This document shows positions 5,674-55,246 of a stretch of 55,246 bases of DNA, in pieces (the first letter of the stretch is position 1; each line of letters begins with the position of its first letter). Source of the DNA: a virus; the IMG/VR virus record IMGVR_UViG_3300045988_088672; one strand, written 5' to 3'. The translations under genes and the position numbers were made by a program. Under the pieces are notes generated by a model. That model did no database searches. It had not been told where the DNA came from and saw only the letters and a program-made list of their open reading frames with translations.

Positions 5674-6507
5674 ATGATAAACAATGAAAATTATATAACA
5701 ATTCAGGGCTGGATGGTTAATGATTTAAAATTGAAAGGAAATGCTTTGATCATATATGCAACGATTTATGGATTTTCTCAAACCGCAGACTGTAAGTTTA
5801 CAGGAAGTGCTAATTATTTGGCGGAATGGTGTGGATGCTCCAGACAAACAATAATGACCACGCTTAATAAATTAGTTGTGGATAATTTAATCATAAAAAC
5901 CGAAGAATTTAAGAACAATGTTAAGTTCTGCTCCTACCATGTCAATTTGACAGGATGTAAAGATTCTTTACAGGGAGGTGTCAAAAAATTTGACAGGGGG
6001 GTGTCAAAAAATTTGACAGGGGGGTGTCAAAATTCTTTACACAATAATATAGATAAAAACAATAGAAATAAAACTATAGAAGATAATATAGATAAGAAAA
6101 ATTCTAAAAAGAAATCTAAGATTGATACTAAAATCGAATCAATAGAAAAGAAATGTTTAGAATATGATTTAGAAGATGATACTATAGAGCTTTTAAGTAG
6201 ATTTTTTAGAAATCTTTTAGAAAATCATAAAATGGTTACAGAGGATAAGGTAAATGCAATTTTAACGAAACTAGCAAAAGTAAACACAAAAACTCAGATA
6301 AATGCTATTCAGCTATCTCTTGATAATGGGTATATGAATATAGACCCGGAGTGGTTACAGAACAAAAACAATTCCTATAGTGGAACCGGTAAATGTTCAA
6401 AAGAACTATCCTGGAGAACACATGAAGAAATGGAAGAATCAGAAAAGAAAAGACAAGAATTTTTTGAAAAAGTAAGAAACAATGATTCATCAATACATCA
6501 TTTTTAA
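5674..6507 (+). CDS. Putative replication initiator / replisome organiser (N-terminal winged-helix)
   Basis: The N-terminal domain GNALIIYATIYGFSQ...GSANYLAEWCGCSRQTIMTTLNKLV is typical of phage and plasmid HTH replication proteins. The gene sits upstream of the DnaC-like and DnaB genes and contains iterons. Confidence 0.55.
   Translation: MINNENYITIQGWMVNDLKLKGNALIIYATIYGFSQTADCKFTGSANYLAEWCGCSRQTIMTTLNKLVVDNLIIKTEEFKNNVKFCSYHVNLTGCKDSLQGGVKKFDRGVSKNLTGGCQNSLHNNIDKNNRNKTIEDNIDKKNSKKKSKIDTKIESIEKKCLEYDLEDDTIELLSRFFRNLLENHKMVTEDKVNAILTKLAKVNTKTQINAIQLSLDNGYMNIDPEWLQNKNNSYSGTGKCSKELSWRTHEEMEESEKKRQEFFEKVRNNDSSIHHF
5977..6041 (+). repeat. Iteron array: 23-bp tandem repeat x2.8 (GGTGTCAAAAAATTTGACAGGGG) inside the initiator gene
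   Basis: Exact copies lie at 5977-5999 and 6000-6022, a partial copy at 6023-6041, and a short variant TGTCAATTTGACAGG at 5940-5954. Each unit holds the palindrome TGTCAAA/TTTGACA. The 23-bp period is not a multiple of 3. Confidence 0.85.
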
Positions 6508-6521
6508 AGGAGGAATATAAA

Positions 6522-6881
6522 ATGGCATATAAAGGAGCATATAAGGCTAAAGATGAGAAGTATCTGAAAGAATTGGTTTTGGGGTGTATAACTGATGAAC
6601 CTACAAGACTCAGTTCAGCTAAAATAGCAAATTACCTTGGCTTAAGTTCAAGGGACGTTCGCCTGCTAGTGCAAAAGTTAAGGGATGACGGATACCCAAT
6701 ATGTGCTACACCAGAACAAGGGTACTGGATGGCAAGAACAAGCTGGGATATGAATGATACAATGAGTAAGCTAAAATCACATATCGAAAACAGTACAGAT
6801 ACTTATAACTCGCTTGTTTATTGTCAAAATGTTTTAAAGCGAAAGGAAGGAAACAATGAATATACAGAATTGCTGGTATAA
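6522..6881 (+). CDS. Winged-helix DNA-binding protein
   Basis: SSAKIANYLGLSSRDVRLLVQKLRDDGYPI resembles an HTH_11-like wHTH. Confidence 0.45.
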   Translation: MAYKGAYKAKDEKYLKELVLGCITDEPTRLSSAKIANYLGLSSRDVRLLVQKLRDDGYPICATPEQGYWMARTSWDMNDTMSKLKSHIENSTDTYNSLVYCQNVLKRKEGNNEYTELLV

Positions 6882-7518
6882 AAGAATATGTACAGAAAAA
6901 TGTACGGAAAACTGCATAAGGTATAAGCTGATGTATTCATTATTCAAGCAATCTAATCTTCCCGAAGCATTGTGGAATTATAAAGAGCTGATGTGCCATG
7001 AAAAAGATTTGCAAGTTTATAAGAAATTACAAGCAAAATCAGATGCAATTTTGAATTTTATTGAAGAAGGCAATAACTTATACATCTACTCCGAAAACTG
7101 TGGAAATGGTAAGACAACATGGGCTATTAGATTGATGTATTCATACTTCGATAAGATATGGCATAAGAGTTGCTTTGACTGCAAAGCTTTGTTTGTCAGT
7201 GTTCCTAAATTTCTGTATAATTGCAAGCGTTCAATTTCGCAGGATGTAAAAGGCTTTGAAGAATTATGTAATCTTATTAGCGAGGTAGATTTTGTTATAT
7301 GGGATGATGTAGGGGAAATGAAAGCAAGTGACTACGAGCATCAGATATTATTCCAATATATTGATAATAGAATCAACTCCAAAAAGAGCAACATTTACAC
7401 AAGCAATAAGAATAAGGAACAGCTTGAAGATGTGTTGGGTGTAAGACTTGCAAGTCGGATATATAATTGTTCTGAGTGTATAGAATTTGTAGAAGAAGAT
7501 AAGAGAGGTAAATACTAA
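6856..7518 (+). CDS. DnaC/IstB-like AAA+ helicase loader
   Basis: Walker A GNGKTT and Walker B VIWDDVG are present. The gene sits immediately upstream of DnaB. Confidence 0.7.
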   Translation: MNIQNCWYKRICTEKCTENCIRYKLMYSLFKQSNLPEALWNYKELMCHEKDLQVYKKLQAKSDAILNFIEEGNNLYIYSENCGNGKTTWAIRLMYSYFDKIWHKSCFDCKALFVSVPKFLYNCKRSISQDVKGFEELCNLISEVDFVIWDDVGEMKASDYEHQILFQYIDNRINSKKSNIYTSNKNKEQLEDVLGVRLASRIYNCSECIEFVEEDKRGKY

Positions 7519-8789
7519 TGGTAGAATTACAGATAATAAACCGGGTATTAAAAGACAAAAATACTTCTCTATTAGATTTGAACGACATCACAAGAGACTA
7601 TTTTAATCAGTATCAAGAAGAATATGACTATATCATGGAACACAAACAGGAATATGGAAATGTGCCGGATTTGGAAACATTCATAGCAAAGTTCCAGGAT
7701 TTTGACGTGATCAATGTATCTGAAAGCACTGAATATCTTGTGAATACATTTAGAGAAGAATATCTATATTTTCAGTCGGTTCCGGTGCTTACGAAGATGG
7801 CGGAACTATTACAGACAGATGCATATTCCGCCGTTGATTACTTAAAATCAAAATTACCGGAATTAAAGATTGATGGGGCAGTAAAAGGGACAGATATCAT
7901 TTCACAAGCAAGGGAAAGACTTGAAGAGTGGAAAGAAACAAAAGATAATCAAGATACACACTTTATAGCAAGTGGATTTGAAGAGATTGATAACGACTTG
8001 GGGGGTTGGCATAAAGGAGAGGAATTAGTTGTTTTATTTGCACGAACTGGACAAGGAAAATCATGGGTGCTTATTAAAATGTTAGAACATGCATGGAAAG
8101 TATATCATGCAAGAGTAGGACTTTTAGAGCCTGAAATGTCAGCCAGTAAAACAGGATATAGATTTGATACTGTACATCAACATATATCATCTAAAGCACT
8201 GTATAAAGGCGAAGATGTGCAAGGTTATGAAAAATATATAAACAGGTTAGCTGATAATGGTACTCCGTTCTATGTTGCACATCCTAGAGATTTTCAAAAG
8301 AAAGTAACGGTATCAAAGTTAAAAAGTTGGTGCGAAAGTAACAAGTTGGATATGCTGGCAATAGATGGTATCTCTTATCTGCAGGATGAACGAGGAAAAA
8401 GGGGAGATAATAAAACAACACAGCTGACGAACATATCCGAAGATTTAATGCAATTAAGCATTGACTTAAAAATCCCAGTGCTGGTTGTTGTACAATCAAA
8501 CAGGGAAGGAACAATAAATGAAGATTTACAGCTTGAAAATATAAGAGACTCAGATGGAATTGCTTATAATGCGTCAATCGTTCTTTCAATTCAGCAAAAG
8601 GAAGAAGGCTTGCAGATACAAGATGTAAAAGCCCGAAATTCAAAAGTAGGAATAAAATGGGTTTATGCTTGGGATACAGATAAAGGAACATTTGATTATA
8701 TCCCTAACCCAGAAAAAGGAAAAGAAGATGATGAAAAAAGCGAAGATTTAAGGCGAAGATATCATGATAGAGAAAGTGAGGAATATTAA
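7518..8789 (+). CDS. dnaB: DnaB-family replicative helicase
   Basis: GFEEIDNDLGGWHKGEELVVLFARTGQGKSWVL (Walker A), DGISYL and VVVQSNREG follow the DnaB C-terminal RecA-fold pattern. Confidence 0.85.
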   Translation: MVELQIINRVLKDKNTSLLDLNDITRDYFNQYQEEYDYIMEHKQEYGNVPDLETFIAKFQDFDVINVSESTEYLVNTFREEYLYFQSVPVLTKMAELLQTDAYSAVDYLKSKLPELKIDGAVKGTDIISQARERLEEWKETKDNQDTHFIASGFEEIDNDLGGWHKGEELVVLFARTGQGKSWVLIKMLEHAWKVYHARVGLLEPEMSASKTGYRFDTVHQHISSKALYKGEDVQGYEKYINRLADNGTPFYVAHPRDFQKKVTVSKLKSWCESNKLDMLAIDGISYLQDERGKRGDNKTTQLTNISEDLMQLSIDLKIPVLVVVQSNREGTINEDLQLENIRDSDGIAYNASIVLSIQQKEEGLQIQDVKARNSKVGIKWVYAWDTDKGTFDYIPNPEKGKEDDEKSEDLRRRYHDRESEEY

Positions 8790-12059: not shown

Positions 12060-12359
12060 ATGAGACTATTTATAAGCCAACCAATGAAAGACAAGACAAA
12101 TGAGGAAATTAAGTCAGAAAGAAATGAAATTATACAGAGAGTAAAAGAAAGATACCCAAACGAAGAAATAGAAGTGATTGACTCTTTCTTTGAAAATGCA
12201 CCACATGATGCAAAGCCATTGTGGTTTTTAGGTAAGTCTTTGGAATTACTTTCAACTGCTGACATTGCATACTTTGCAGAGGGTTGGAAAAATTATAGAG
12301 GATGCAGAATTGAACATGAAGCGGCTGTTCAGTATGGAGTTCATATTATGTGGGATTAA
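12060..12359 (+). CDS. DUF4406-like (nucleoside 2-deoxyribosyltransferase-fold) protein
   Basis: MRLFISQPM...ADIAYFAEGWKNYRGCRIEHEAAVQYG matches the DUF4406 pattern (ISGPM...GWxxSxGxxxE). Confidence 0.55.
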   Translation: MRLFISQPMKDKTNEEIKSERNEIIQRVKERYPNEEIEVIDSFFENAPHDAKPLWFLGKSLELLSTADIAYFAEGWKNYRGCRIEHEAAVQYGVHIMWD

Positions 12360-12371
12360 AAGGAGGATTAT

Positions 12372-12527
12372 ATGGCAACAAAGAATAAGCATAGAGAAAG
12401 AAGCCACAGAAGTTATCAAAAGAATGCTGATTTTTCGGACTTTGAAAGAAAAGCAAAAGTGAAGTCCGTCAAGAAAGAACAGAAATCTTTTTTTGATAAG
12501 CTGTTTAATCGAACAACAAACAAATAA
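12372..12527 (+). CDS. Hypothetical basic small protein (51 aa, not in ORF track)
   Basis: Hand translation gives MATKNKHRERSHRSYQKNADFSDFERKAKVKSVKKEQKSFFDKLFNRTTNK*. SD AAAGGAGGA lies at 12359-12367. Confidence 0.5.
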   Translation: MATKNKHRERSHRSYQKNADFSDFERKAKVKSVKKEQKSFFDKLFNRTTNK

Positions 12528-12539
12528 GAGGAGGATCAT

Positions 12540-14819: not shown

Positions 14820-14848
14820 TTGACATCTATACTTTTATGTGTTACAAT
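14820..14848 (+). promoter_or_regulatory. Early-class promoter cassette copy 4
   Basis: TTGACA 14820-14825, 17-bp spacer, TACAAT 14843-14848 with TGT. The downstream leader ATAATCAAAGTTAAGAAA is shared with copies 6-8. Confidence 0.75.
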
Positions 14849-14891: not shown

Positions 14892-15401
14892 ATGAAAAGA
14901 TATAAAAATAGAAAGAGTGGCATAATAGTAAATGTTATAGGTCAGAATGATGCAGAAAATAAAATTACTGTTGAATTTGCGGGTGGGAAGAATGCTGGCA
15001 AGCAGGTAAATTATAAATTAGCTTCATTTACGAAAAGCTGGAAATTTTTAGACGAAGTCCAGCCCACAAAAGAAGTAAATGAGCCTACAAAAGATGAAGT
15101 TAAAAAATCTAACACTGAGAAAGTTGATGTCATTGAGAAGATTGAGATTATGTCTAGTGCAATTAAATCAAAGGGCTACAATATAAAAATATATTCAGGA
15201 AGAATTCAAAACTTGAATATTAAAATGGAAAATAAGCATATTGCAGAGGTATGTTTGAAGCACAAAAAGATAGTTGTTTATACAAAAGAACAACTTACAG
15301 ATGAAAGTAAGAAAATAAACAATGGAAAATTTAAGACGCTGTTTTGTTACTCTGACAATTTTGCAAATGAAATAATGGAAATTATAGAAAGGAGCATGTA
15401 A
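14892..15401 (+). CDS. Hypothetical protein
   Basis: ORF track, 169 aa. AAGGAGG SD is upstream. Confidence 0.6.
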   Translation: MKRYKNRKSGIIVNVIGQNDAENKITVEFAGGKNAGKQVNYKLASFTKSWKFLDEVQPTKEVNEPTKDEVKKSNTEKVDVIEKIEIMSSAIKSKGYNIKIYSGRIQNLNIKMENKHIAEVCLKHKKIVVYTKEQLTDESKKINNGKFKTLFCYSDNFANEIMEIIERSM

Positions 15402-15402
15402 A

Positions 15403-15816
15403 GTGGCACTTATAAAAGTGAATAAAAAAGATTATATGGAGGGAGACACTAAATATTCGAGAGCTATATCAATACCTCAATATGAAGTAAAGGGAGACAG
15501 ACCGTTCATAGAAGAACTATATTCAAATGAAAAAGTAATTAAATTATTAGACCATATCAAAAAGTCCGGTGTATCAGAGAATGAAAAGAAGTTTTTGACA
15601 ATAGCAGCGTATAGACATTATGTATTTAACTATAGTAGAATAGCAGAGTATTATGCTAGTGCTAGCAAAGAAATGCAGGAACTTATGGAGGAATCAGCAC
15701 TTGTGATTATTGATATTGATGATGCTATAAAAAATGGATATGTTAAATATAATAAGCGTATTCAGCAGATTATTGAAGATTCTAAAAAAGTAAAGGAGGA
15801 ATCTAATGAGAAGTGA
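15403..15816 (+). CDS. Hypothetical protein
   Basis: ORF track, 137 aa. GTG start lies 8 nt after AAAGGAG. Confidence 0.55.
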   Translation: MALIKVNKKDYMEGDTKYSRAISIPQYEVKGDRPFIEELYSNEKVIKLLDHIKKSGVSENEKKFLTIAAYRHYVFNYSRIAEYYASASKEMQELMEESALVIIDIDDAIKNGYVKYNKRIQQIIEDSKKVKEESNEK

Positions 15817-16657
15817 TTTTGCATGTTTTATCCTTTGTCATGGTAGACCAAATAATACACCCACATTTAGCACTTTAAGGAAGTACGGCTACACTGGTGC
15901 TATATATATAATCTGTGATGACGAGGATAAAACATTGCAGGAATATAGGAATATATATGGCGAGGACATTGTAAAGGTCTTTAATAAATTAGATGTTCTA
16001 CAAAAATTTGATACTATGGACTCTAGTGAAAATCGTGGATGCGCAGTGTACGCTAGAAATGCGTGTTTTGATATTGCTGAGGAGTTAGGAATAAGATATT
16101 TTTGTGAGTTAGATGATGATTATTTAGACATAACCATACGAAAGCCGGTTGAAGACAAATTACCGGTATTTAATCACAAAAATCTTGACCTTATTTTTGA
16201 AACATACATTGATTTTATGAATACAAACCCAAATATATATTCAGTAGCATTTGCACAAGCTGGAGATTATATTGGTGGTTATGCTTGTCAACTAATGAGT
16301 AATGGGTATAAACGTAAGTGTATGAATAGTTGGATTTGTGATGTTTCAAAAAGATTCATATTTAATGGTAGAATGAATGATGACGTTAATACCTATACAT
16401 TGGAGGGTTCACGCGGAAAAGTCTATATAACATTGCCATATGTATGTGTTAATCAGCCGGAGACTCAACAGGTTAGTGGCGGTATGACAGATATGTATAA
16501 AGGGGAAGGGACATACATTAAATCTTTTTATACTGTGATGTGCTGTCCAAGTTTTGCTTGTATTCATATTATGGGTTGGCACAATTATAGAATACACCAT
16601 AAAATAAATTGGGAACATGCTTGCCCTAAAATTATTTCTGATAAATGGAAAAAATAA
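15806..16657 (+). CDS. Putative GT-A-like glycosyltransferase (DxD motif)
   Basis: An N-terminal beta-alpha start (FILCHGRPNN) and a CELDDDY (DxD) motif resemble nucleotide-sugar transferases. Motif-level inference only. Confidence 0.35.
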   Translation: MRSDFACFILCHGRPNNTPTFSTLRKYGYTGAIYIICDDEDKTLQEYRNIYGEDIVKVFNKLDVLQKFDTMDSSENRGCAVYARNACFDIAEELGIRYFCELDDDYLDITIRKPVEDKLPVFNHKNLDLIFETYIDFMNTNPNIYSVAFAQAGDYIGGYACQLMSNGYKRKCMNSWICDVSKRFIFNGRMNDDVNTYTLEGSRGKVYITLPYVCVNQPETQQVSGGMTDMYKGEGTYIKSFYTVMCCPSFACIHIMGWHNYRIHHKINWEHACPKIISDKWKK

Positions 16658-16679
16658 TTTTATTTTTATGTGTTACAAT
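16651..16679 (+). promoter_or_regulatory. Truncated promoter cassette (extended -10 half only)
   Basis: TATTTTTATGTGTTACAAT is retained, with TACAAT at 16674-16679. The -35 position reads AAAATA. The element overlaps the stop of the preceding gene. Confidence 0.45.
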
Positions 16680-16710
16680 AAAAGAGAAATAAACAGAAAG
16701 GAGAAAGACA

Positions 16711-18102
16711 TTGAATTATGATGAATTTCTAAAAACAAAAATAGAGCAATTCAATCCTTGTGGATTTGATTATGAACCTTCAAACAAAAATTTATTTGAT
16801 TTTCAAAGAGCTATTGTGAAGATAGCACTTAAAAGAGGAAAATCTGCATTGTTTCTTGATACAGGACTTGGAAAAACTATATGTCAGTTGTCATGGGCAG
16901 ATGAAGTGTATAAGCATACTGGAAAAAATGTACTTATACTTGCCCCGCTTGCGGTATCCGTTCAGACAAAAAGAGAGGGAGAAAAGTTCGGCGTTGAGGT
17001 AAATATTTGTAGAACGCAGGAGGATGTAAAAGACGGAATAAACATTACAAATTATGAAATGTTAGAACATTTTAATGCTGAAGAATTTATAGGAATTGTA
17101 CTTGATGAAAGTTCAATACTTAAATCATATAGTGGAAAAATGAAAACTGGCATAATAGAAAAGTTTGAGAATGTTCCTTATAAGCTATCCTGCACTGCCA
17201 CCCCATCTCCTAATGATACAATGGAGTTATTAAATCAAGCCGAATTTTTGAATGTTCTAAAATCGCATGAGGCATTGGCTGTATGGTTTGTAACTGACCA
17301 AAACTCAATGGGAGCATATAGATTAAAGCATCATGCAGAGGATGACTTTTGGACTTGGGTATCAAGCTGGGCAGTTCTTTTAAAAAAGCCGTCAGATTTA
17401 GGGTTTAATGATGATGGTTACGATTTGCCGCCTTTGTATGAGAAAGATGTTATAATTCCTGTATCATTAAAAAGTGAAGAAAAGGGAAGATTGTTGCGAA
17501 AAATTGAAATGTCAGCAACAAACTTCTATAAAGAAAAGAAACTAATTACAGATGAAAGAATAAAAAAGATTGCTGAAATAGCAAATAGCACAGATGAGCA
17601 GTATCTAATTTGGTGTTATACAAACGAAGAAAGTTCATTGTTACACAAAGCTATTGAAGGAAGTGTTGAGGTTAAGGGTTCAGATAAGCCAGAACACAAA
17701 GAGAAATCAAGTCTTGATTTTAAATCGGGGAAAATAAGAGTGCTTATATCAAAGGTATCTATTTTTGGTTTTGGTTTGAATTTTCAGAATTGCACAAAAT
17801 GTATTTTTTGCGGGTTAGATTATTCATATGAAAAATACTACCAAGCAGTAAGAAGATTGTACAGATTTGGACAGACAAAGGAAGTTACAGTATATAGAGT
17901 TTTGGGTTCAACAGAAAGTCATATACTTAATATATTGACTGACAAATACAGAAAGCAGGAGAATATGCAGGAGCATATGAACAAATGCACAAATAAACTA
18001 ATACTTGATGAAATGAATGGCAATAGAAAATTTAAGCTGAGCGAACAAAATACGGAAAATATAAGTTTTCCGAGTTGGTTAAAGGAGGAAACATATGAAT
18101 AG
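16711..18102 (+). CDS. DEAD/DEAH-box (SF2, SNF2-related) helicase
   Basis: LDTGLGKT (motif I), VLDESS (motif II), CTATPSPN (motif III) and a C-terminal helicase domain with YYQAVRRLYRFGQ (motif VI). TTG start follows AAAGGAGAAAG. Confidence 0.8.
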   Translation: MNYDEFLKTKIEQFNPCGFDYEPSNKNLFDFQRAIVKIALKRGKSALFLDTGLGKTICQLSWADEVYKHTGKNVLILAPLAVSVQTKREGEKFGVEVNICRTQEDVKDGINITNYEMLEHFNAEEFIGIVLDESSILKSYSGKMKTGIIEKFENVPYKLSCTATPSPNDTMELLNQAEFLNVLKSHEALAVWFVTDQNSMGAYRLKHHAEDDFWTWVSSWAVLLKKPSDLGFNDDGYDLPPLYEKDVIIPVSLKSEEKGRLLRKIEMSATNFYKEKKLITDERIKKIAEIANSTDEQYLIWCYTNEESSLLHKAIEGSVEVKGSDKPEHKEKSSLDFKSGKIRVLISKVSIFGFGLNFQNCTKCIFCGLDYSYEKYYQAVRRLYRFGQTKEVTVYRVLGSTESHILNILTDKYRKQENMQEHMNKCTNKLILDEMNGNRKFKLSEQNTENISFPSWLKEETYE

Positions 18103-19009
18103 TGTAGTTAAAAATGATTATGCAATTTATAATGGAGATTGTGTAGAGTTGATGAAAACAATGCCTGATGAAAGTATCGACTTTTCTATATTTTCGCCGC
18201 CATTCGTAAATTTATATATTTATAGTGATGATTTACGAGATATGGGTAATTGTAAAGACAGTGAAGAGTTCTTTCAGCAAATGCAGTTTATGACGGAACA
18301 TTTGCACAGAATATTAAGGACAGGCAGGCTTGTAGCAGTTCATTGCAAAAATACAGTGAAATATAAAAATCGTGACGGAGTTGCCGGTTGGTATGATTTT
18401 AGAGGAGATTTAATAAGGCATTTTGAAAAGAATGGCTTTCAGTATCATTCAGAGGTTTGCATATGGACCGACCCTGTAAGAGAAATGCAGAAAACAAAGA
18501 CACAAAGATTATTATATTGTCAGTTACAGAGAGATGCAAGTCATACTGGAATTGGTATGCCTGAGTATCTTGTAATCTTCAGAAAGTGGGGTGATGAAAG
18601 TAAAGAAATCCCTATTAAGCATTATAAGAATGAAAAGCAGATGGAAGAAGATAATGGAGAGCCATTACAGTTAGTTGACCTTGAAACATGGCAGAGATAT
18701 GCAAGTCCTGTTTGGTTCGATATTAAACGTACAGATGTATTAAGCGGAAAGATGGCAAGAGACGAAAAAGATGAAAAGCATATCTGTCCACTACAGTTGG
18801 AGGTTATTCAAAGAGCGGTTGAGCTATGGACTAATCCTGGAGAGGTAGTATTTACCCCATTCATGGGGATAGGTTCAGAAGTATATCAAAGTTTGAAACT
18901 TCATAGAAAAGCGATAGGTGTTGAATTAAAGGAAAGCTATTTTAATCAAGCGGCTGAAAATTGCAAAATGGCAATATCAGATAGAGTAGAAAGAAAGAGA
19001 TTATTTTAA
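18095..19009 (+). CDS. N4/N6 DNA methyltransferase (beta-class, N6_N4_Mtase type)
   Basis: The catalytic SPPF motif (FSPPFVNLY) is near the N-terminus and the AdoMet motif FTPFMGIGSE near the C-terminus. The start overlaps the helicase stop. Confidence 0.85.
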   Translation: MNSVVKNDYAIYNGDCVELMKTMPDESIDFSIFSPPFVNLYIYSDDLRDMGNCKDSEEFFQQMQFMTEHLHRILRTGRLVAVHCKNTVKYKNRDGVAGWYDFRGDLIRHFEKNGFQYHSEVCIWTDPVREMQKTKTQRLLYCQLQRDASHTGIGMPEYLVIFRKWGDESKEIPIKHYKNEKQMEEDNGEPLQLVDLETWQRYASPVWFDIKRTDVLSGKMARDEKDEKHICPLQLEVIQRAVELWTNPGEVVFTPFMGIGSEVYQSLKLHRKAIGVELKESYFNQAAENCKMAISDRVERKRLF

Positions 19010-19022
19010 GGAGGATTAAAAA

Positions 19023-20117
19023 ATGAAAGTAGTAACAAGTAGAATGAAAGAAGCAGTAAACAAAGCAATCAAGGGAGCAGGATTTAATAATCTTATTCCT
19101 ATTACATCAATGATTGGTATTAAATTATCAGATGGAAAATTAAGATTGCTTACAACAGACATGACTAATACATTATGTATTATCATTGATAAGGTAGCTG
19201 GGGATGATATGGACATCACAGTAGATGCTGATAAATTTGGAAAGTTGATTGCAAAGACAACTTCCGAAGACATTGAATTGTTGATTATTGATGATGTTTT
19301 ATCAATCAAAGCTAACGGAACTTATAAGATACCTTTGATTTCAGGTGAGGAAGGACTTATCTCGTTCCCGGATATTAAGTCATTAGATGATAAGAATGTG
19401 CAGTGTTCCACCAAACTATCGAGTGTTATTCAGGCTTATAATATCAATAAATCAGCACTTGCAAAAACATTAGAAAATCCTGCCTTGACTGGTTACTATT
19501 GCGGGGACACGGTTATTAGTACGGATGCAAATGTTATCACATTCAATGGATTTAAGATGTTTGATAACGAAGAACCTATTCTTATTTCCGCTCAGCAGAT
19601 GCAGTTGTTGACACTGAACACAAAGGAAGATATTGAAGTTTATATTGGAAAAACAGGTATTCAATTCGTGACGGAAGATGTGATTATTGATGGTGCATTG
19701 ATGGAAGGAATTGAAGATTTCCCAGCAAACGAAGTAAACGCTTATCTTGACGAAGCTTTTACATCTTCCTGCAAAGTACCAAAGGATTTACTTCTTTCCG
19801 CTCTTGATAGACTTGCATTATTCATCGAACCATATGACAAGAATGGGGCATATTTCACTTTCGGAAGAAAGGGCATCAATATTTACAGTAAAAAGGAGGC
19901 ATCTACAGAAACCATCAACTATGTGGAAAGTAAGGACTTTGCCCTGTTTGTGTGCTGTGTAGATATTCCAATGTTGAAGGAACAGTTGCAGGCTAATCCG
20001 GACGATACGGTAAAGATTTGTTACGGAAATGAAAATGCGTTGAAGATCGAGAGCGGAAAAGTAACGCAAGTTATAGCGTTGCTTGAAGATGAAGAACTTG
20101 ACAGCATGGCAGAATAG
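19023..20117 (+). CDS. dnaN: DNA polymerase III beta-type sliding clamp
   Basis: At 364 aa the length matches a dimeric beta clamp. The N-terminal pattern KAIKGAGFNNLIPITSMIGIKLSDGKLRLLTTDMT parallels bacterial DnaN. Clamp-loader genes follow. Confidence 0.6.
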   Translation: MKVVTSRMKEAVNKAIKGAGFNNLIPITSMIGIKLSDGKLRLLTTDMTNTLCIIIDKVAGDDMDITVDADKFGKLIAKTTSEDIELLIIDDVLSIKANGTYKIPLISGEEGLISFPDIKSLDDKNVQCSTKLSSVIQAYNINKSALAKTLENPALTGYYCGDTVISTDANVITFNGFKMFDNEEPILISAQQMQLLTLNTKEDIEVYIGKTGIQFVTEDVIIDGALMEGIEDFPANEVNAYLDEAFTSSCKVPKDLLLSALDRLALFIEPYDKNGAYFTFGRKGINIYSKKEASTETINYVESKDFALFVCCVDIPMLKEQLQANPDDTVKICYGNENALKIESGKVTQVIALLEDEELDSMAE

Positions 20118-20171
20118 TCATATAATGTTTAAGTGTTGATTCCATAGCAGTGGACGATTACTTTTAATAGG

Positions 20172-20200
20172 TGGTTAGTTAAAAACTAACCATCTTTTTT
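20172..20200 (+). terminator. Rho-independent terminator
   Basis: Stem TGGTTAGTT/AACTAACCA followed by TCTTTTTT. Confidence 0.75.
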
Positions 20201-20695: not shown

Positions 20696-20780
20696 AAATG
20701 AACGAGAGAATGTAATCTTAGAGTACTTACTAGCCTATGAGGTTTCAAAGTAAGCAACCTGTATGAAAATCCGTTCATTT
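20696..20780 (+). promoter_or_regulatory. Structured 85-nt element in the 5' region of the ArdC-N-like gene
   Basis: A closing helix pairs AAATGAACG (20696-20704) with CGTTCATTT (20772-20780). Inner complementarities are CTTAC/GTAAG and AGGTT/AACCT. TATAAT lies at 20681-20686, just upstream. Confidence 0.45.
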
Positions 20781-20807
20781 ATAAACAAAACAAGGAGGAT
20801 ACATACT

Positions 20808-21077
20808 ATGATAAACACAGCTATTATATTAGACTATATGCAATTAAATAATTTAGATCCTAATAAGGTTATTTTGCATACATATGCCACCTGGAAGAAA
20901 TTAGGATATCAAGTTAAGCAAGGCGAGAAATCAGCACATAAGATTCCAGTCTGGAGAAGATCCACAAAGAAGATTGAAAATGAGGAAGGAGAAAAGGAAG
21001 AAGTGGACAATGGAAGATATTTCTTGAAAGAATCTGCCTTTTTCACACAAGCACAAGTAGAGGTGATTGATGAATGA
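20808..21077 (+). CDS. ArdC N-terminal-like (DUF1738-type) ssDNA-binding protein
   Basis: TYATWKKLGYQVKQGEKSAHKIPVW matches the ArdC-N pattern (W..LG..VKKGEK..I..W). ATG 20808 follows AAGGAGGA. Confidence 0.4.
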   Translation: MINTAIILDYMQLNNLDPNKVILHTYATWKKLGYQVKQGEKSAHKIPVWRRSTKKIENEEGEKEEVDNGRYFLKESAFFTQAQVEVIDE

Positions 21078-24246: not shown

Positions 24247-24397
24247 TGAAATTATGGTAATGCTATTACAATCTTGTAATAAGAGATTCAAGGAGACTAC
24301 AAGTTTAAGTAAAAAGCTATTGGATTGTGCTACACAAATCTATATTGCGGAAATGGGGGAGAAGAATAATGCAGAAATTTCCGAGAAGATGGAATAA
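24236..24397 (+). CDS. Hypothetical small protein (53 aa, not in ORF track)
   Basis: Hand translation gives MTFDEIMVMLLQSCNKRFKETTSLSKKLLDCATQIYIAEMGEKNNAEISEKME*. GGAGG lies 9 nt upstream. Confidence 0.4.
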   Translation: MTFDEIMVMLLQSCNKRFKETTSLSKKLLDCATQIYIAEMGEKNNAEISEKME

Positions 24398-24722
24398 ATT
24401 GGATTGTGTTAATTTTCTTCAAAGGAAGATTATCATAAATTCAATAGCTTACTACGAATTGGATAATCCAGTTCTTTCCGATAAACAATATGATGAACTG
24501 TGCCGACAGTTAGTATCAATGCAGGAAGATATTGACTTGAATTTGACGCAGTATGGGTACTGTATGAATGGATTTGATGGTAGTACCGGATTTGACCTTT
24601 ACACAAAATTAAATGACCCTGATAAAGATTATTTGATGAAATTGGCAGTGCTTGGACTCGGGAAAGTTAAAGTGAAAGAAGAAAAAGTAGTGAAGAAAAA
24701 TCGAAAAGGAGGACTATTTTAA
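24369..24722 (+). CDS. Hypothetical protein with an N-terminal motif resembling NAD-ligase domain Ia
   Basis: ORF track 24327..24722. ATG 24369 is preferred because it follows GGGGGAG. IAYYELDNPVLSDKQYDELCRQL resembles the LigA Ia pattern (YY..D.P..SD..YD.L). Weak inference. Confidence 0.45.
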   Translation: MQKFPRRWNKLDCVNFLQRKIIINSIAYYELDNPVLSDKQYDELCRQLVSMQEDIDLNLTQYGYCMNGFDGSTGFDLYTKLNDPDKDYLMKLAVLGLGKVKVKEEKVVKKNRKGGLF

Positions 24723-26847: not shown

Positions 26848-27066
26848 ATGGACGTAGATTCAGAATTAAATAATCTTGTAGAAATAAGAGGCTCTTACTG
26901 TCATGAACCATACTTAATAATGTCAAAGATGACGTTTAAGCTCATTAAAATGCTGTCCAAAGGATATAATGCTAAAGATAATTCATGGGTATATAGCGGA
27001 GACTCGAGCTGGGTACCTTATGAATTTCAAATTGCAATTGATAAAAGAATACCTTTTGGGAGGTGA
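26848..27066 (+). CDS. Hypothetical protein
   Basis: ORF track, 72 aa. SD is weak. Confidence 0.4.
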   Translation: MDVDSELNNLVEIRGSYCHEPYLIMSKMTFKLIKMLSKGYNAKDNSWVYSGDSSWVPYEFQIAIDKRIPFGR

Positions 27067-27073
27067 AAGTGAA

Positions 27074-27451
27074 ATGACATTAGACGATTGTAAGAGGATT
27101 CATCATGATATGTGGAATTATATTGCAGATACTGAAGATCGTACTCATCATTCATTGAGTAGGTCATATTTAAAGGATGATTTTTGTGCAAGAAATCATT
27201 TATATTTCAGCAATAATTGTGCTTTATGTGAGTACGCTTTAGACCAATATAATGCACACCATGATGAATGTGTGGCTTTCAGTGTGTCGCATGATGTCTG
27301 TACATTTTGTCCGGCTTTATGGGGGACAGAGGGAGATCAGTACGGTTATTATTGTGAACATGATGTTGATGGATCTGCTGAAAGAATTGATTGGAGGTAT
27401 ACCAAAGCCGATGATATAAGAGACATTAAATGGAAAGACGAGGTGGAGTAA
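27074..27451 (+). CDS. Hypothetical Cys/His-rich protein
   Basis: ORF track 26969..27451. ATG 27074 is preferred because it follows GGGAGGTG. Contains CALCEY...HHDEC...CTFCP. Confidence 0.55.
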   Translation: MTLDDCKRIHHDMWNYIADTEDRTHHSLSRSYLKDDFCARNHLYFSNNCALCEYALDQYNAHHDECVAFSVSHDVCTFCPALWGTEGDQYGYYCEHDVDGSAERIDWRYTKADDIRDIKWKDEVE

Positions 27452-31584: not shown

Positions 31585-32106
31585 ATGTTAGATGAACAGC
31601 AGAAAAAAATTGTAGCAGAAAATCATAACTTAATATACTATGCTTTGAGCAAGTATAAGTTGAATCCGGAAGAGTATTATGACATACTCGCTATTGGCTT
31701 ATGCAAAGCCGCAATTGCCTTTGACCCGGAAAGGTCAAAGTTCGCAACATACGCAATGAAGGTCATGTATAATGAATTTTTAATGCAGGTCAAGCATGAA
31801 AATGCTAATAAAAGAGAAGCAAATAAGAATGTGCTTTCTTTAAATTACAGACTAAATGATCATAAAAATGAAGGTCATATATGTGAATTTGGAGAGTTAT
31901 TGACAGATGGGAGAGAACCATTCATGGATGTGGTTCATATGTATCTTCCGGATATACTAACAAAGAAAGAGCTTTTAGTATGCCAGCTTTCATATGATGG
32001 TTATGACCAGACACAAATCGGAGAAAAGATGGGTGTGACACAGTCTTATGTTAGCAGATTATTAAAGAAAGCAAGAATTAAATTAGAAAAGGAGATGGTA
32101 TTTTGA
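31585..32106 (+). CDS. Sigma-70-family RNA polymerase sigma factor (regions 2 and 4)
   Basis: Region 2-like NHNLIYYALSKY...ILAIGLCKAAIAFDPERSKFATYA. Region 4 HTH is QTQIGEKMGVTQSYVSRLLKKA. Confidence 0.8.
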   Translation: MLDEQQKKIVAENHNLIYYALSKYKLNPEEYYDILAIGLCKAAIAFDPERSKFATYAMKVMYNEFLMQVKHENANKREANKNVLSLNYRLNDHKNEGHICEFGELLTDGREPFMDVVHMYLPDILTKKELLVCQLSYDGYDQTQIGEKMGVTQSYVSRLLKKARIKLEKEMVF

Positions 32107-32468
32107 ATACAGCTAAAAATTTTAGAAAAATATTGAGAGGGGACGTATATTGGGTTGATTTAAGTCCTCTAAGTGATGTAGTAAAACATATGGAAGGCGG
32201 TGTTAGACCAGTGGTCGTTGTAAGCAACTCGTATAATAACAAATACTGCGACCTTTTAAACGTCATCCCTATGACATCAAAAAAAGATAAATTGCCACAG
32301 CATCAGTCAGTTACGGTAATGCACAAGAAAGACCCAAGAAAGAGTTATTTGCTCCCGGAAAATACGTGCGTTATAAATAAGAATCAATTGCGGAATTTTA
32401 TCTGTCATTTGGACCCACGTTCAATAAGCAACATGAACCGGGCAATAATGACACAGTTCGAGTTATAA
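32103..32468 (+). CDS. mazF: MazF/PemK (EndoA-like) endoribonuclease toxin
   Basis: RGDVYWVDLSP...GGVRPVVVVSN...VIPMTS...KLPQH closely parallels B. subtilis EndoA ([28 protein letters not shown]...). TTG start overlaps the sigma stop by 4 nt. Confidence 0.8.
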   Translation: MNTAKNFRKILRGDVYWVDLSPLSDVVKHMEGGVRPVVVVSNSYNNKYCDLLNVIPMTSKKDKLPQHQSVTVMHKKDPRKSYLLPENTCVINKNQLRNFICHLDPRSISNMNRAIMTQFEL

Positions 32469-55047: not shown

Positions 55048-55246
55048 TGGATGATAGACAATTTGATATATTAGACATATTAAATATATTGTCTTTTATC
55101 ATAGGGGTTAAAAATATAAATGAGAACTTATCTCAAAATACTGCCGGAGATTTATTATCTGCGGCAGTTAAAGAGATACATGAACATTTATCCGAACAGG
55201 ACAGAAAGATTGATTTAATTCTAAAAAAGTTAGGAGTTGATTATAA
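55047..55246 (+). CDS. Hypothetical protein, 5' part (continues across the genome junction to position 133)
   Basis: ATG overlaps the preceding stop (TAATG). Translation starts MDDRQFDILDILNILSFIIGVKNINENLSQNTAGDLLSAAVKEIHEHLSEQDRKIDLILKKLGVDY... The window ends mid-codon. Confidence 0.5.
   Translation, partial: MDDRQFDILDILNILSFIIGVKNINENLSQNTAGDLLSAAVKEIHEHLSEQDRKIDLILKKLGVDY
55148..55246. repeat. Terminal direct repeat, copy 2 (identical to 1..99)
   Basis: Read directly from the sequence. Confidence 0.95.

Follow-up and report, generated by a model that had tools for sequence, protein, structure and literature searches.

What is a gene for a glycosyltransferase of a DNA-modifying family doing next to genes for a helicase and a DNA methyltransferase, in a phage that shows no gene for making the hydroxylated base on which such a sugar would be placed? 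This question is raised by positions 14,892 to 19,009 of the IMG/VR virus record IMGVR_UViG_3300045988_088672, a stretch of 55,246 nucleotides (nt) to which we refer as the window. An earlier note on this DNA had read the region as a single operon, in which a glycosyltransferase (GT) and a split helicase/methyltransferase (MTase) would together form a DNA-modification system or a counterpart of DarB, the anti-restriction factor of phage P1. The five open reading frames (ORFs) indeed lie where they had been placed, all on the + strand, and both gene overlaps as well as the DxD and SPPF motifs are as described. Nonetheless, we arrive at a different picture, to which we give a probability of roughly 0.6: the region is a variable DNA-modification island between the genes for the DNA polymerase PolA and the sliding clamp, and it is made up of two separately evolving modules that work by the mechanism set out below. 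Module A pairs the GT with a small protein that corresponds to the C-terminal domain (CTD) of certain ParB-like proteins, and module B pairs the helicase with the MTase. The comparisons that follow establish the identities and architectures of these components, their co-occurrence, and the independence of the two modules.

The core of module A is gene 15806 (15806..16657, + strand), whose product of 283 amino acids (aa) is assigned to the DNA-glycosyltransferase family (TAGT) of GT-A enzymes. It matches the Pfam TAGT profile PF20691 almost from end to end (positions 2-204 of 205; E 5.7e-31; 108.5 bits, with a cut-off of 27.5), as well as phrog_842 (E 8.7e-59). Its GT-A motifs are found at R14, D38-D39-E40-D41, and D103-D104-D105-Y106, following the pattern R ... 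DDD ... E/D-D-Y/F given in a New England Biolabs (NEB) preprint. R14, D41, D103-D105, and R170 are invariant in 20 orthologues and paralogues, and all of them are present in 15806. The GT-A-like start and the ELDDDY motif (residues 101-106) that had drawn attention to this protein are thus those of a TAGT-family enzyme with intact catalytic residues. In its near full-length profile match and its R...DDD...(E/D)DY signature, it resembles the T2/T6 beta-glucosyl-HMC-alpha-glucosyltransferase (HMC, hydroxymethylcytosine) and the metavirome GT-A enzymes associated with 5mYOX/TET. Known TAGT members acting on DNA are the second glucosyltransferase of T6 and the 5mYOX-associated GT-A enzymes. Unlike in the usual TAGT systems, however, no TET/5mYOX, C5-methyltransferase, or hydroxymethylase is detected in this genome, and the GT is paired with a CTD protein instead.

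This partner is encoded by 15403 (15403..15816, + strand; 137 aa; GTG start), the second of two upstream genes that had both been described as unknown. That description still holds for the first, 14892, which has no family match, and no longer for 15403, which corresponds to the CTD of GT-associated ParB-like proteins. It aligns with the last third of phrog_620 ('ParB-like partition protein') only, at positions 148-216 of 217, and is 45-50% identical to the C-terminal halves of the ParB-like proteins of phage phi jlb1, Escherichia coli, and the haloarchaeal virus HHTV-2. The motifs PxYEPxG, AAxRHxVFxY, IAEYYAHA, and QxLMExSALVIID are common to 15403 and these C-terminal halves, and the domain contains invariant Tyr, Arg, Gln, Glu, and Asp residues together with a nearly invariant His. 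In their N-terminal half, the ParB-like proteins that accompany the GT have a true ParB_N domain, which in phi jlb1 matches Pfam at E 5e-13. Aligning with the C-terminal half only, 15403 lacks this N-terminal nucleotide-binding domain with its GxxR box (ParB/Srx, PF02195), and a hidden Markov model (HMM) built from the GT-associated partners and run over all frames of the 55-kb genome returned no ParB_N at E <= 0.01. The domain belongs to a large family: an exhaustive HMMER search collected 1,148 CTD clusters at 50% identity, and a full-length ParB_N-CTD profile collected at least 7,841 clusters at 90% identity, among which only the ParB_N half is annotated in 120 of the 120 listed. CTD relatives were found neither in the PDB (profile search of PDB sequences) nor in Pfam (scans of 41 family members). 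With these nulls and a predicted local distance difference test score (pLDDT) of 49, we rejected a fold assignment for 15403.

What ties the CTD to the GT is their near-absolute co-occurrence. Among annotated phage records, 28 of 28 CTD-positive records are also GT-positive, with the GT immediately downstream wherever coordinates were compared. From IMG/VR, 80 CTD loci were sampled, 78 of which had room for a downstream GT. A GT follows on the same strand in 76 of these 78 (66 of the 76 at a distance of at most 60 nt) and lies elsewhere in the locus in two. The partner contains ParB_N and CTD in 44 of the 80 loci and is CTD-only in 36, among them all 19 loci with a PolA/clamp context. Seen from the side of the enzyme, annotated GT homologues are almost always directly preceded by a ParB-like gene, as in lambdoid phages of E. 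coli/Salmonella and the Lactobacillus phages phi jlb1, c5, and phiLdb, and the same order recurs in Vibrio phages, Nocardia phages, and HHTV-2. Viruses of Gram-negative, Gram-positive, actinobacterial, and haloarchaeal hosts share the pair at 39-60% identity, and the CTD-GT family spans at least 591 IMG/VR loci. Because the co-occurrence is near-absolute and CTD-only loci exist, we regard CTD and GT as a conserved functional unit, in which the ParB nucleoside triphosphatase (NTPase) domain is optional. Judged from these sequence comparisons, 15403 is the obligate, translationally coupled partner of the GT, lacking the ParB NTPase domain.

Module A can be placed beside the ParB_N-CTD and TAGT pairs of other genomes, namely ynaK with its downstream gene, gp24/gp25 of phi jlb1, and gp21/gp22 of HHTV-2. 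The GT is 39-45% and the CTD 45-50% identical to these, the genes come in the same order, and the 11-nt overlap of partner and GT genes is found again in phi jlb1 and HHTV-2. In contrast to them, the partner here consists of the CTD only, and the locus lies between PolA and clamp instead of before the terminase genes. The 2013 paper of Iyer et al., which defined TAGT, is said to have noted the co-occurrence of ParB and GT. In the literature, we found no experimental work on the ParB-CTD/GT pair, E. coli ynaK included; the co-occurrence is mentioned in surveys (NEB preprint). The best functional analogy for 15403 is a different one. ParB176 is required for the activity of 5mYOX176 on double-stranded DNA (dsDNA) and is needed for such substrates only, and its C-terminal domain is indispensable (PNAS 2026, PMC13229309). 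There too, a ParB-like accessory protein stands beside a post-replicative DNA-modifying enzyme. Unlike in that system, the enzyme here is a glycosyltransferase and not a dioxygenase, and neither a 5mYOX gene nor a ParB nucleotide-binding domain was found in the genome.

The E. coli form of the pair is a Rac-type prophage locus after trkG (L002:5217-6933; H112-H119; L-numbers are the labels of the compared loci), where the ParB-like gene is annotated ynaK. Of 5,426 complete E. coli genomes, 1,580 match this locus, 889 of them with a coverage of at least 80% of the query. In other phages the module takes up additional genes. A fusion of His_Phos_1 and cytidylyltransferase (a gene of ~320 aa) sits between the ParB-CTD gene and the GT in L091, L092, L110, and L111, and the CTD-GT modules of L041 and L042 contain a CofD-family protein (its C-terminal part HAD-like by motif only) and a MobA/IspD-like nucleotidyltransferase. 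These insertions fit the synthesis of an unusual activated donor, possibly of phospho-linked groups. A radical S-adenosylmethionine (SAM) gene resembling the spore-photoproduct-lyase/PA0069/Rv2578c group lies just upstream of the CTD gene at L026:8848-9987 and likewise in L027 and L028, and another lies between the CTD gene and the GT at L050:5712-6692; such enzymes could tailor the sugar or act on DNA. In the protein P0301 (533 aa, 20 contigs), ParB_N-CTD is naturally fused to a protein of ~277 aa that bears the SAM-methyltransferase-like motif DAGCG, and at L093:1509-2342 a protein of the same type, with no Pfam match, has a gene of its own, located between those for ParB-CTD and the GT. P0301 had been considered as a ParB-CTD-GT fusion, which we rejected since BLASTP with the GT gave nothing and its C-terminal half resembles the L093 protein. 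Two further candidates were discarded as well. 14892 and 15403 are not a single frameshifted gene, because 15403 has its own GGAG ribosome-binding site and GTG start and L007, L026, and L029 also encode the two separately; in L026, the radical SAM gene even stands between the 14892-like gene and the CTD gene. MT835491.1 (59.5 kb), with a GT at a similar coordinate, turned out to have the ordinary ParB-GT-terminase arrangement and is no syntenic relative.

Module B consists of the two genes that follow the GT. Gene 16711 (16711..18102, + strand; 463 aa; TTG start) encodes a predicted superfamily 2 (SF2) translocase/helicase of the SNF2/XPB-like type, with matches to Pfam Helicase_C (5.6e-11) and ResIII (1.5e-5) and to phrog_62 and phrog_16. 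Its motifs I, II, III, and VI are intact (GxGKT, DESS, TAT, and QxxRRxxRxGQ), and INO80, DDM1, SsoRad54, and XPBII are its sequence matches in the PDB. Gene 18095 (18095..19009, + strand; 304 aa) encodes a predicted beta-class N6-adenine/N4-cytosine DNA MTase, matching Pfam N6_N4_Mtase (PF01555, E 1.3e-19), phrog_67, and phrog_16. It carries SPPF at residues 34-37 and FxGxG at residues 256-260, and aligns over its full length with Thermus thermophilus TTHA0409 (PDB 2zie, E 4.9e-14). An SPPF motif is more typical of N4-cytosine than of N6-adenine enzymes. The identification of the two as an SF2 helicase and a beta-class MTase with SPPF, joined by an 8-nt overlap, is borne out by the Pfam matches, and the genes are translationally coupled. 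Coupling within module B follows from this overlap, from the existence of a fused helicase-MTase family (phrog_16, which covers both proteins), and from the co-variation of helicase residues 151-463 with the MTase described below.

At least 331 phage records contain the dyad, its genes either adjacent or fused, with genus counts that agree between helicase and MTase (Mycobacterium 147/147, Flavobacterium 85/85, Arthrobacter 27/27). The dyad is also present in Pseudomonas and Synechococcus phages and in a Methanosarcinales virus, and its adjacency was seen in L005 and L006. Its host genera have little in common with those of the 36 records positive for the GT, and it lies near CTD-GT in 3 of the 80 IMG/VR loci. 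We therefore no longer follow the proposal that the GT is paired with the helicase and MTase as one system, all the more as the dyad is absent in the relatives L026-28. Predicted from family membership and distribution, 16711 and 18095 are a common phage dyad, a cassette separate from CTD-GT.

The position between PolA and clamp is itself variable. L029 and L030 have the same arrangement as this phage. In L026-28, whose CTD protein is 80% identical, the order is PolA, 14892-like gene, radical SAM gene, CTD, GT, and clamp, with no helicase or MTase, and in more distant PolA-type relatives one or two extra GT paralogues replace the dyad. Clostridium phage phiCTP1 (L032) has at the same place (6299-8307) a Cys-rich protein (gp50), a DNA methyltransferase with SPPY (gp51), and an unknown protein (gp52). 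In this group of phages, the slot between PolA and clamp is a hot spot for genes of DNA modification. An N6_N4 methyltransferase that has no helicase beside it is found directly upstream of the ParB-CTD/GT pair or of GT paralogues at L118:8738-9877 and L008:6010-6738; from this arrangement it follows that methylases and the GT pair often share an insertion site without being obligately linked.

On a finer scale, exchange reaches into the genes. The closest relative, L007, is 93-97% identical to this phage over 14892, 15403, and GT residues 1-106, and 95% identical in the clamp. Within the GT, identity falls from 96% in residues 1-106 to 61% in residues 107-283, and within the helicase from 90-92% in residues 1-150 to 42% in residues 151-463, followed by 49-50% in the MTase. 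There are thus two divergent blocks (16100-16700 and 17150-18950) with breakpoints inside genes, in a backbone that is otherwise ~95% identical. GT residues 107-283 are presumably the acceptor-binding half, as in GT-A enzymes generally, and the swapped halves of the GT and of the helicase-MTase dyad are the parts that most plausibly set specificity. The joint variation of the second helicase lobe and the MTase fits a physical complex of the two.

Upstream of both modules lies 14892 (14892..15401, + strand), encoding a lineage-restricted protein of 169 aa with a possibly MotA-CTD-like domain. In its AlphaFold2 (AF2) model (pLDDT 80.7), residues 1-55 form a five-stranded beta-barrel, residues 58-77 a disordered linker, and residues 80-168 an alpha-beta5-alpha domain. 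For the latter, the top PDB matches in Foldseek are 1kaf/5jlt, the C-terminal 'double wing' of T4 MotA, with target-normalised template-modelling (TM) scores of 0.59-0.66 and a probability of 1.0. Going by this model, 14892 is probably a dsDNA-binding protein. It differs from MotA in that its N-terminal domain is a beta-barrel, which we take to be unlike the sigma-binding N-domain of MotA, and in that the promoters of this phage are of ordinary -35/-10 types. Scans of Pfam, PHROG, and NCBIfam gave no match, and the 21 homologues all belong to this phage lineage, throughout which (L007, L026, L029) the 14892-like gene comes first after PolA. CTD-GT phages at a greater distance lack it, so that a link to module A is unproven. 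A degenerate ParB N-domain was also considered, as MAFFT had put SAIKSKGYNIKIY under ParB 'SIKxxGWxxPI'; it was ruled out by the ParB_N HMM null and by the AF2 model matching MotA-CTD, and a Foldseek comparison of that model with the PDB gave no ParB match. The BFVD match D9ZNF6 was rejected as a gene of the phiCTP1 PolA-clamp slot, the lengths and sequences of phiCTP1 gp50-52 not fitting 14892. The suggestion that 14892 and 15403 could supply the missing chemistry finds no footing: neither matches a known enzyme family or fold, and 15403 is the non-ParB half of a GT partner.

The genes are transcribed from a sigma-70-type promoter with an extended -10 (TTGACA-17-TGnTACAAT; 14820..14848, + strand), which agrees with the consensus at 11 of 12 positions and in addition has the TG. 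Its 14-mer TTATGTGTTACAAT has eight exact copies on the + strand (819, 3552, 10161, 14835, 16666, 20237, 25708, and 30993). When up to two mismatches are allowed, nine matches are observed where 1.5 are expected, a number reached in 0 of 100 shuffles. Most copies come with a TTGACA -35 box, and together they partition the early/middle region into transcription units. Fourth among the eight is the copy at 14835, in keeping with its earlier designation as promoter cassette 4, and the internal half-cassette reported before the helicase is likewise there: a copy of the -10 cassette without a -35 box (16666..16679, + strand) lies in the 53-nt spacer between GT and helicase. The orthologous spacer of L029 has a full promoter (TTGACG-17-TGnTACAAT), and L007 has no spacer. 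Ribosome-binding sites (GGAG/AAGGAGG) stand 5' of 14892, 15403, 16711, 18095, and 19023, and a Shine-Dalgarno sequence is noted for each of the five ORFs. The unit does not end at 19009, as had been assumed. It is longer, since the first strong terminator, an intrinsic one with a 12-bp stem and a T-run (20169..20195, + strand), lies 3' of the sliding-clamp gene and ends the transcription unit there. The clamp gene (19023..20117, + strand; DNA pol III beta-like; phrog_947 E 2.4e-31 and Pfam DNA_pol3_beta) is the last in the unit and flanks the variable slot in all relatives; it is a backbone replication gene, outside both modification modules.

How, then, might the island work? It would be read from the one early/middle promoter. 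After replication, 15806 would add a sugar to phage DNA, with 15403 activating the GT or targeting it to the duplex, by analogy with the ParB-dependent thymine dioxygenases, and the ParB NTPase domain would have been lost in this lineage. That nucleic acid is the target is suggested by the known family members, which act on DNA; by the partner, which in most members is fused to the ParB DNA-clamp fold; by the position of the pair among replication genes or just before terminase; and by the envelopes of the carriers, which from Gram-negative bacteria to haloarchaea share no common acceptor. In module B, the SNF2-like translocase may carry the MTase along the phage DNA, resulting in a broad methylation that would blunt restriction. 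14892 would be a lineage-specific dsDNA-binding protein.

Several observations weigh against this proposal, and most of them concern the sugar acceptor. To our knowledge, every characterised TAGT-family enzyme needs a hydroxyl acceptor, either 5-hydroxymethylcytosine (5hmC) or a glucose already on DNA. That no hydroxymethylase or thymidylate-synthase-like gene is visible had been remarked upon earlier, and it holds in scans of the whole genome. TET_JBP, thymidylate-synthase/hydroxymethylase, and ThyX find no match in any ORF of at least 185 aa (Pfam, PHROGs, or both), although the Pfam model misses some phage 5mYOXs, which limits the null for dioxygenases. This null covers an entire genome because the window closes on itself: positions 1-99 are repeated exactly and in the same direction at 55148-55246, a terminal 99-bp overlap that is the signature of a circular assembly, making the window a complete circular genome of ~55.1 kb. 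A hidden 5mYOX was also sought in the unannotated ORFs 28089, 40041, 50667, 35836, 4911, 31051, and 26969, none of which combines a plausible HxD...H pattern with a suitable size. No acceptor is therefore identified, as the genome encodes no recognisable hydroxymethyl-pyrimidine pathway. The remaining points concern the supporting proteins and the DNA itself. The AF2 model of 15403 is poor, and the match of 14892 to MotA is weak (Foldseek E 0.02, 13% sequence identity). Throughout the genome, GATC is strongly avoided (55 sites where ~211 are expected, z = -15), as is GGCC (4 sites where ~49 are expected). This avoidance suggests that restriction still selects on the phage DNA despite the modification genes, and that the DNA is not globally hypermodified. 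ATTAAT, CATG, CTAG, and GAATTC are further palindromes avoided genome-wide.

These points give room to other explanations. In one, the GT, helicase, MTase, and perhaps the upstream proteins form a single hypermodification pathway, where a neighbour makes the glycosyl acceptor. The tight packing and co-transcription of the five genes from one promoter, the gene order kept in L007, L029, and L030, and the want of any other acceptor-forming gene in the genome speak for it. However, methylation of N6-adenine or N4-cytosine makes no hydroxyl for glycosyl transfer, as is established chemistry. CTD-GT also does without the dyad in L026-28, in all more distant PolA-type relatives, and in 77 of the 80 IMG/VR loci, the dyad in turn is widespread among other hosts and has its own promoter in L029, and the divergence from L007 falls into two separate blocks instead of one. 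Comparative genomics largely refutes this integrated system, which we consider very improbable. We attach even less weight, close to none, to the idea that helicase and MTase are a split DarB-like factor, packaged or injected to protect incoming DNA in cis as P1 DarB does. Both have an SF2 helicase and a DNA MTase, and SNF2-MTase couplings in mobile elements are regarded as related in mechanism (PMC5512222). The DarB dyad, though, is defined as an EcoKI/TaqI-like adenine MTase placed N-terminal to a SWI2/SNF2 module in a polyvalent virion protein with a late-gene context (PMC5512222). Here, the MTase is of the beta class (PF01555), the order is helicase and then MTase, and two small proteins (463 and 304 aa) are encoded between PolA and clamp under an early/middle promoter cassette; the DarB analogy drawn earlier fails on the class of the MTase, the order of the domains, the size of the proteins, and the genomic setting alike. 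In BLASTP with P1 DarB (2,255 aa), 16711 aligns over 69 residues around Walker A only (E 3e-4), and 18095 has no significant match (E 0.79). The helicase matches only 23 plasmid records, a single one of them from Escherichia, so that plasmid prophages of the P1 type evidently go undetected. Many phages are known to have looser SNF2-MTase couplings (PMC5512222), and it is with these (PHROG 16/62/67) that 16711 and 18095 are placed by their sequences. With the SWI2/SNF2 ATPase and MTase couplings of phages, plasmids, and conjugative elements they share their form, a translationally coupled pair from families that are fused in many phages.

The other explanations concern what the GT acts on. It might modify something other than DNA, be it a protein, perhaps the CTD partner itself, a small molecule or nucleotide, or an envelope polymer, as the prophage GT TarP does. 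We consider this unlikely, yet it is the chief rival of our proposal. TarP is the top structural match in the PDB reported for such phage GT-A enzymes, and the motif KY[ST]..I..PQYEP at the N-terminus of the partner has an invariant Tyr that is a possible protein target. The missing hydroxymethyl-base pathway is not peculiar to this genome either: none is annotated in the complete temperate phage phi jlb1, and none lies within +/-10 kb in six Pfam-labelled ParB_N-CTD+TAGT neighbourhoods. The avoidance of GATC and GGCC, moreover, suggests lightly modified DNA. On the other hand, a pair conserved all the way from E. coli to the viruses of haloarchaea points to an acceptor that is universal, the partner usually comes with a ParB DNA-clamp domain, the pair lies among replication genes or directly upstream of terminase, and the characterised TAGT members act on DNA. 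The genes inserted into CTD-GT modules are in keeping with donor synthesis or with tailoring, and none of them would supply an acceptor. One apparent exception, a ThyX gene beside the GT at L024:8843-9496, was dismissed, having no Pfam or NCBIfam match. A bolder proposal would keep DNA as the target and dispense with the hydroxymethyl group: the CTD would open the duplex or flip a canonical base for the GT, or would itself create the acceptor. This hydroxymethyl-independent DNA glycosylation by the CTD-TAGT pair we regard as speculative and rather doubtful.

The genome in which the island lies is that of a phage with siphovirus-type structural genes, all its genes on one strand, and a guanine-plus-cytosine content of ~33%; near-identical relatives are found on contigs of 53-58 kb. 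It encodes a replication set of an SNF2 protein, DnaB, primase, single-stranded DNA-binding protein (SSB), PolA, clamp, clamp loader, and RecA, along with a sigma factor and terminase. Its PolA comes closest to the PolA of Clostridium phage phiCTP1 (47%) and to that of Streptococcus phage Dp-1, and megablast of the modification region found no match among annotated phages. Among the accessory genes, a MazF/PemK-type toxin (Pfam E 9e-18) adjoins the gene for the phage sigma factor, and an ArdC-N-like single-stranded DNA-binding protein, a nucleoside 2-deoxyribosyltransferase-like protein (phrog_355) encoded between SSB and PolA, and a protein of 131 aa made up of the DNA-ligase N-terminal (Nlig-Ia) domain only are also present; taken together with the sigma factor, these genes occupy 32103-32468, 31585-32106, 20763-21077, 12060-12359, and 24327-24722. 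Between the deoxyribosyltransferase-like gene and PolA lies a small ORF (12372-12527) that the close relative L007 lacks, the alignment having a gap of ~170 nt there (12350-12530). Just upstream of the gene for a RuvC-like resolvase, ORF 26969-27451 encodes a His/Cys-rich protein of 160 aa (10 His, two HHD motifs, several CxxC-like pairs), for which Pfam and PHROG scans gave no match.

The components of the island belong to known families. What is new, as far as we can tell, is that the conserved part of the GT partner is an undescribed CTD able to stand alone, that the pair occurs in a complete genome without a recognisable acceptor pathway, and that the halves most plausibly setting specificity are mosaic on a fine scale. 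What is understood of the glycosylation of phage DNA is limited to cases in which a hydroxymethyl-pyrimidine is produced beforehand, by the hydroxymethylases of the T-even phages or by TET/5mYOX. Here, a complete genome has a TAGT enzyme and its obligate partner without such a step being detected, and the same is true of many temperate phages and of the Rac-type prophages of E. coli. An orphan GT thereby becomes a defined unit of two genes, open to testing in E. coli. If the hydroxymethyl-independent reading were true, a very large uncharacterised family would sugar ordinary DNA by an undescribed chemistry, and the CTD-only form in this phage would mean that no ParB NTPase domain is needed. 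The outcome may be either a new acceptor chemistry or a large 'TET-associated' GT subfamily with a role other than DNA modification, and either one bears on predicting the resistance of phages to restriction and to type IV defence.

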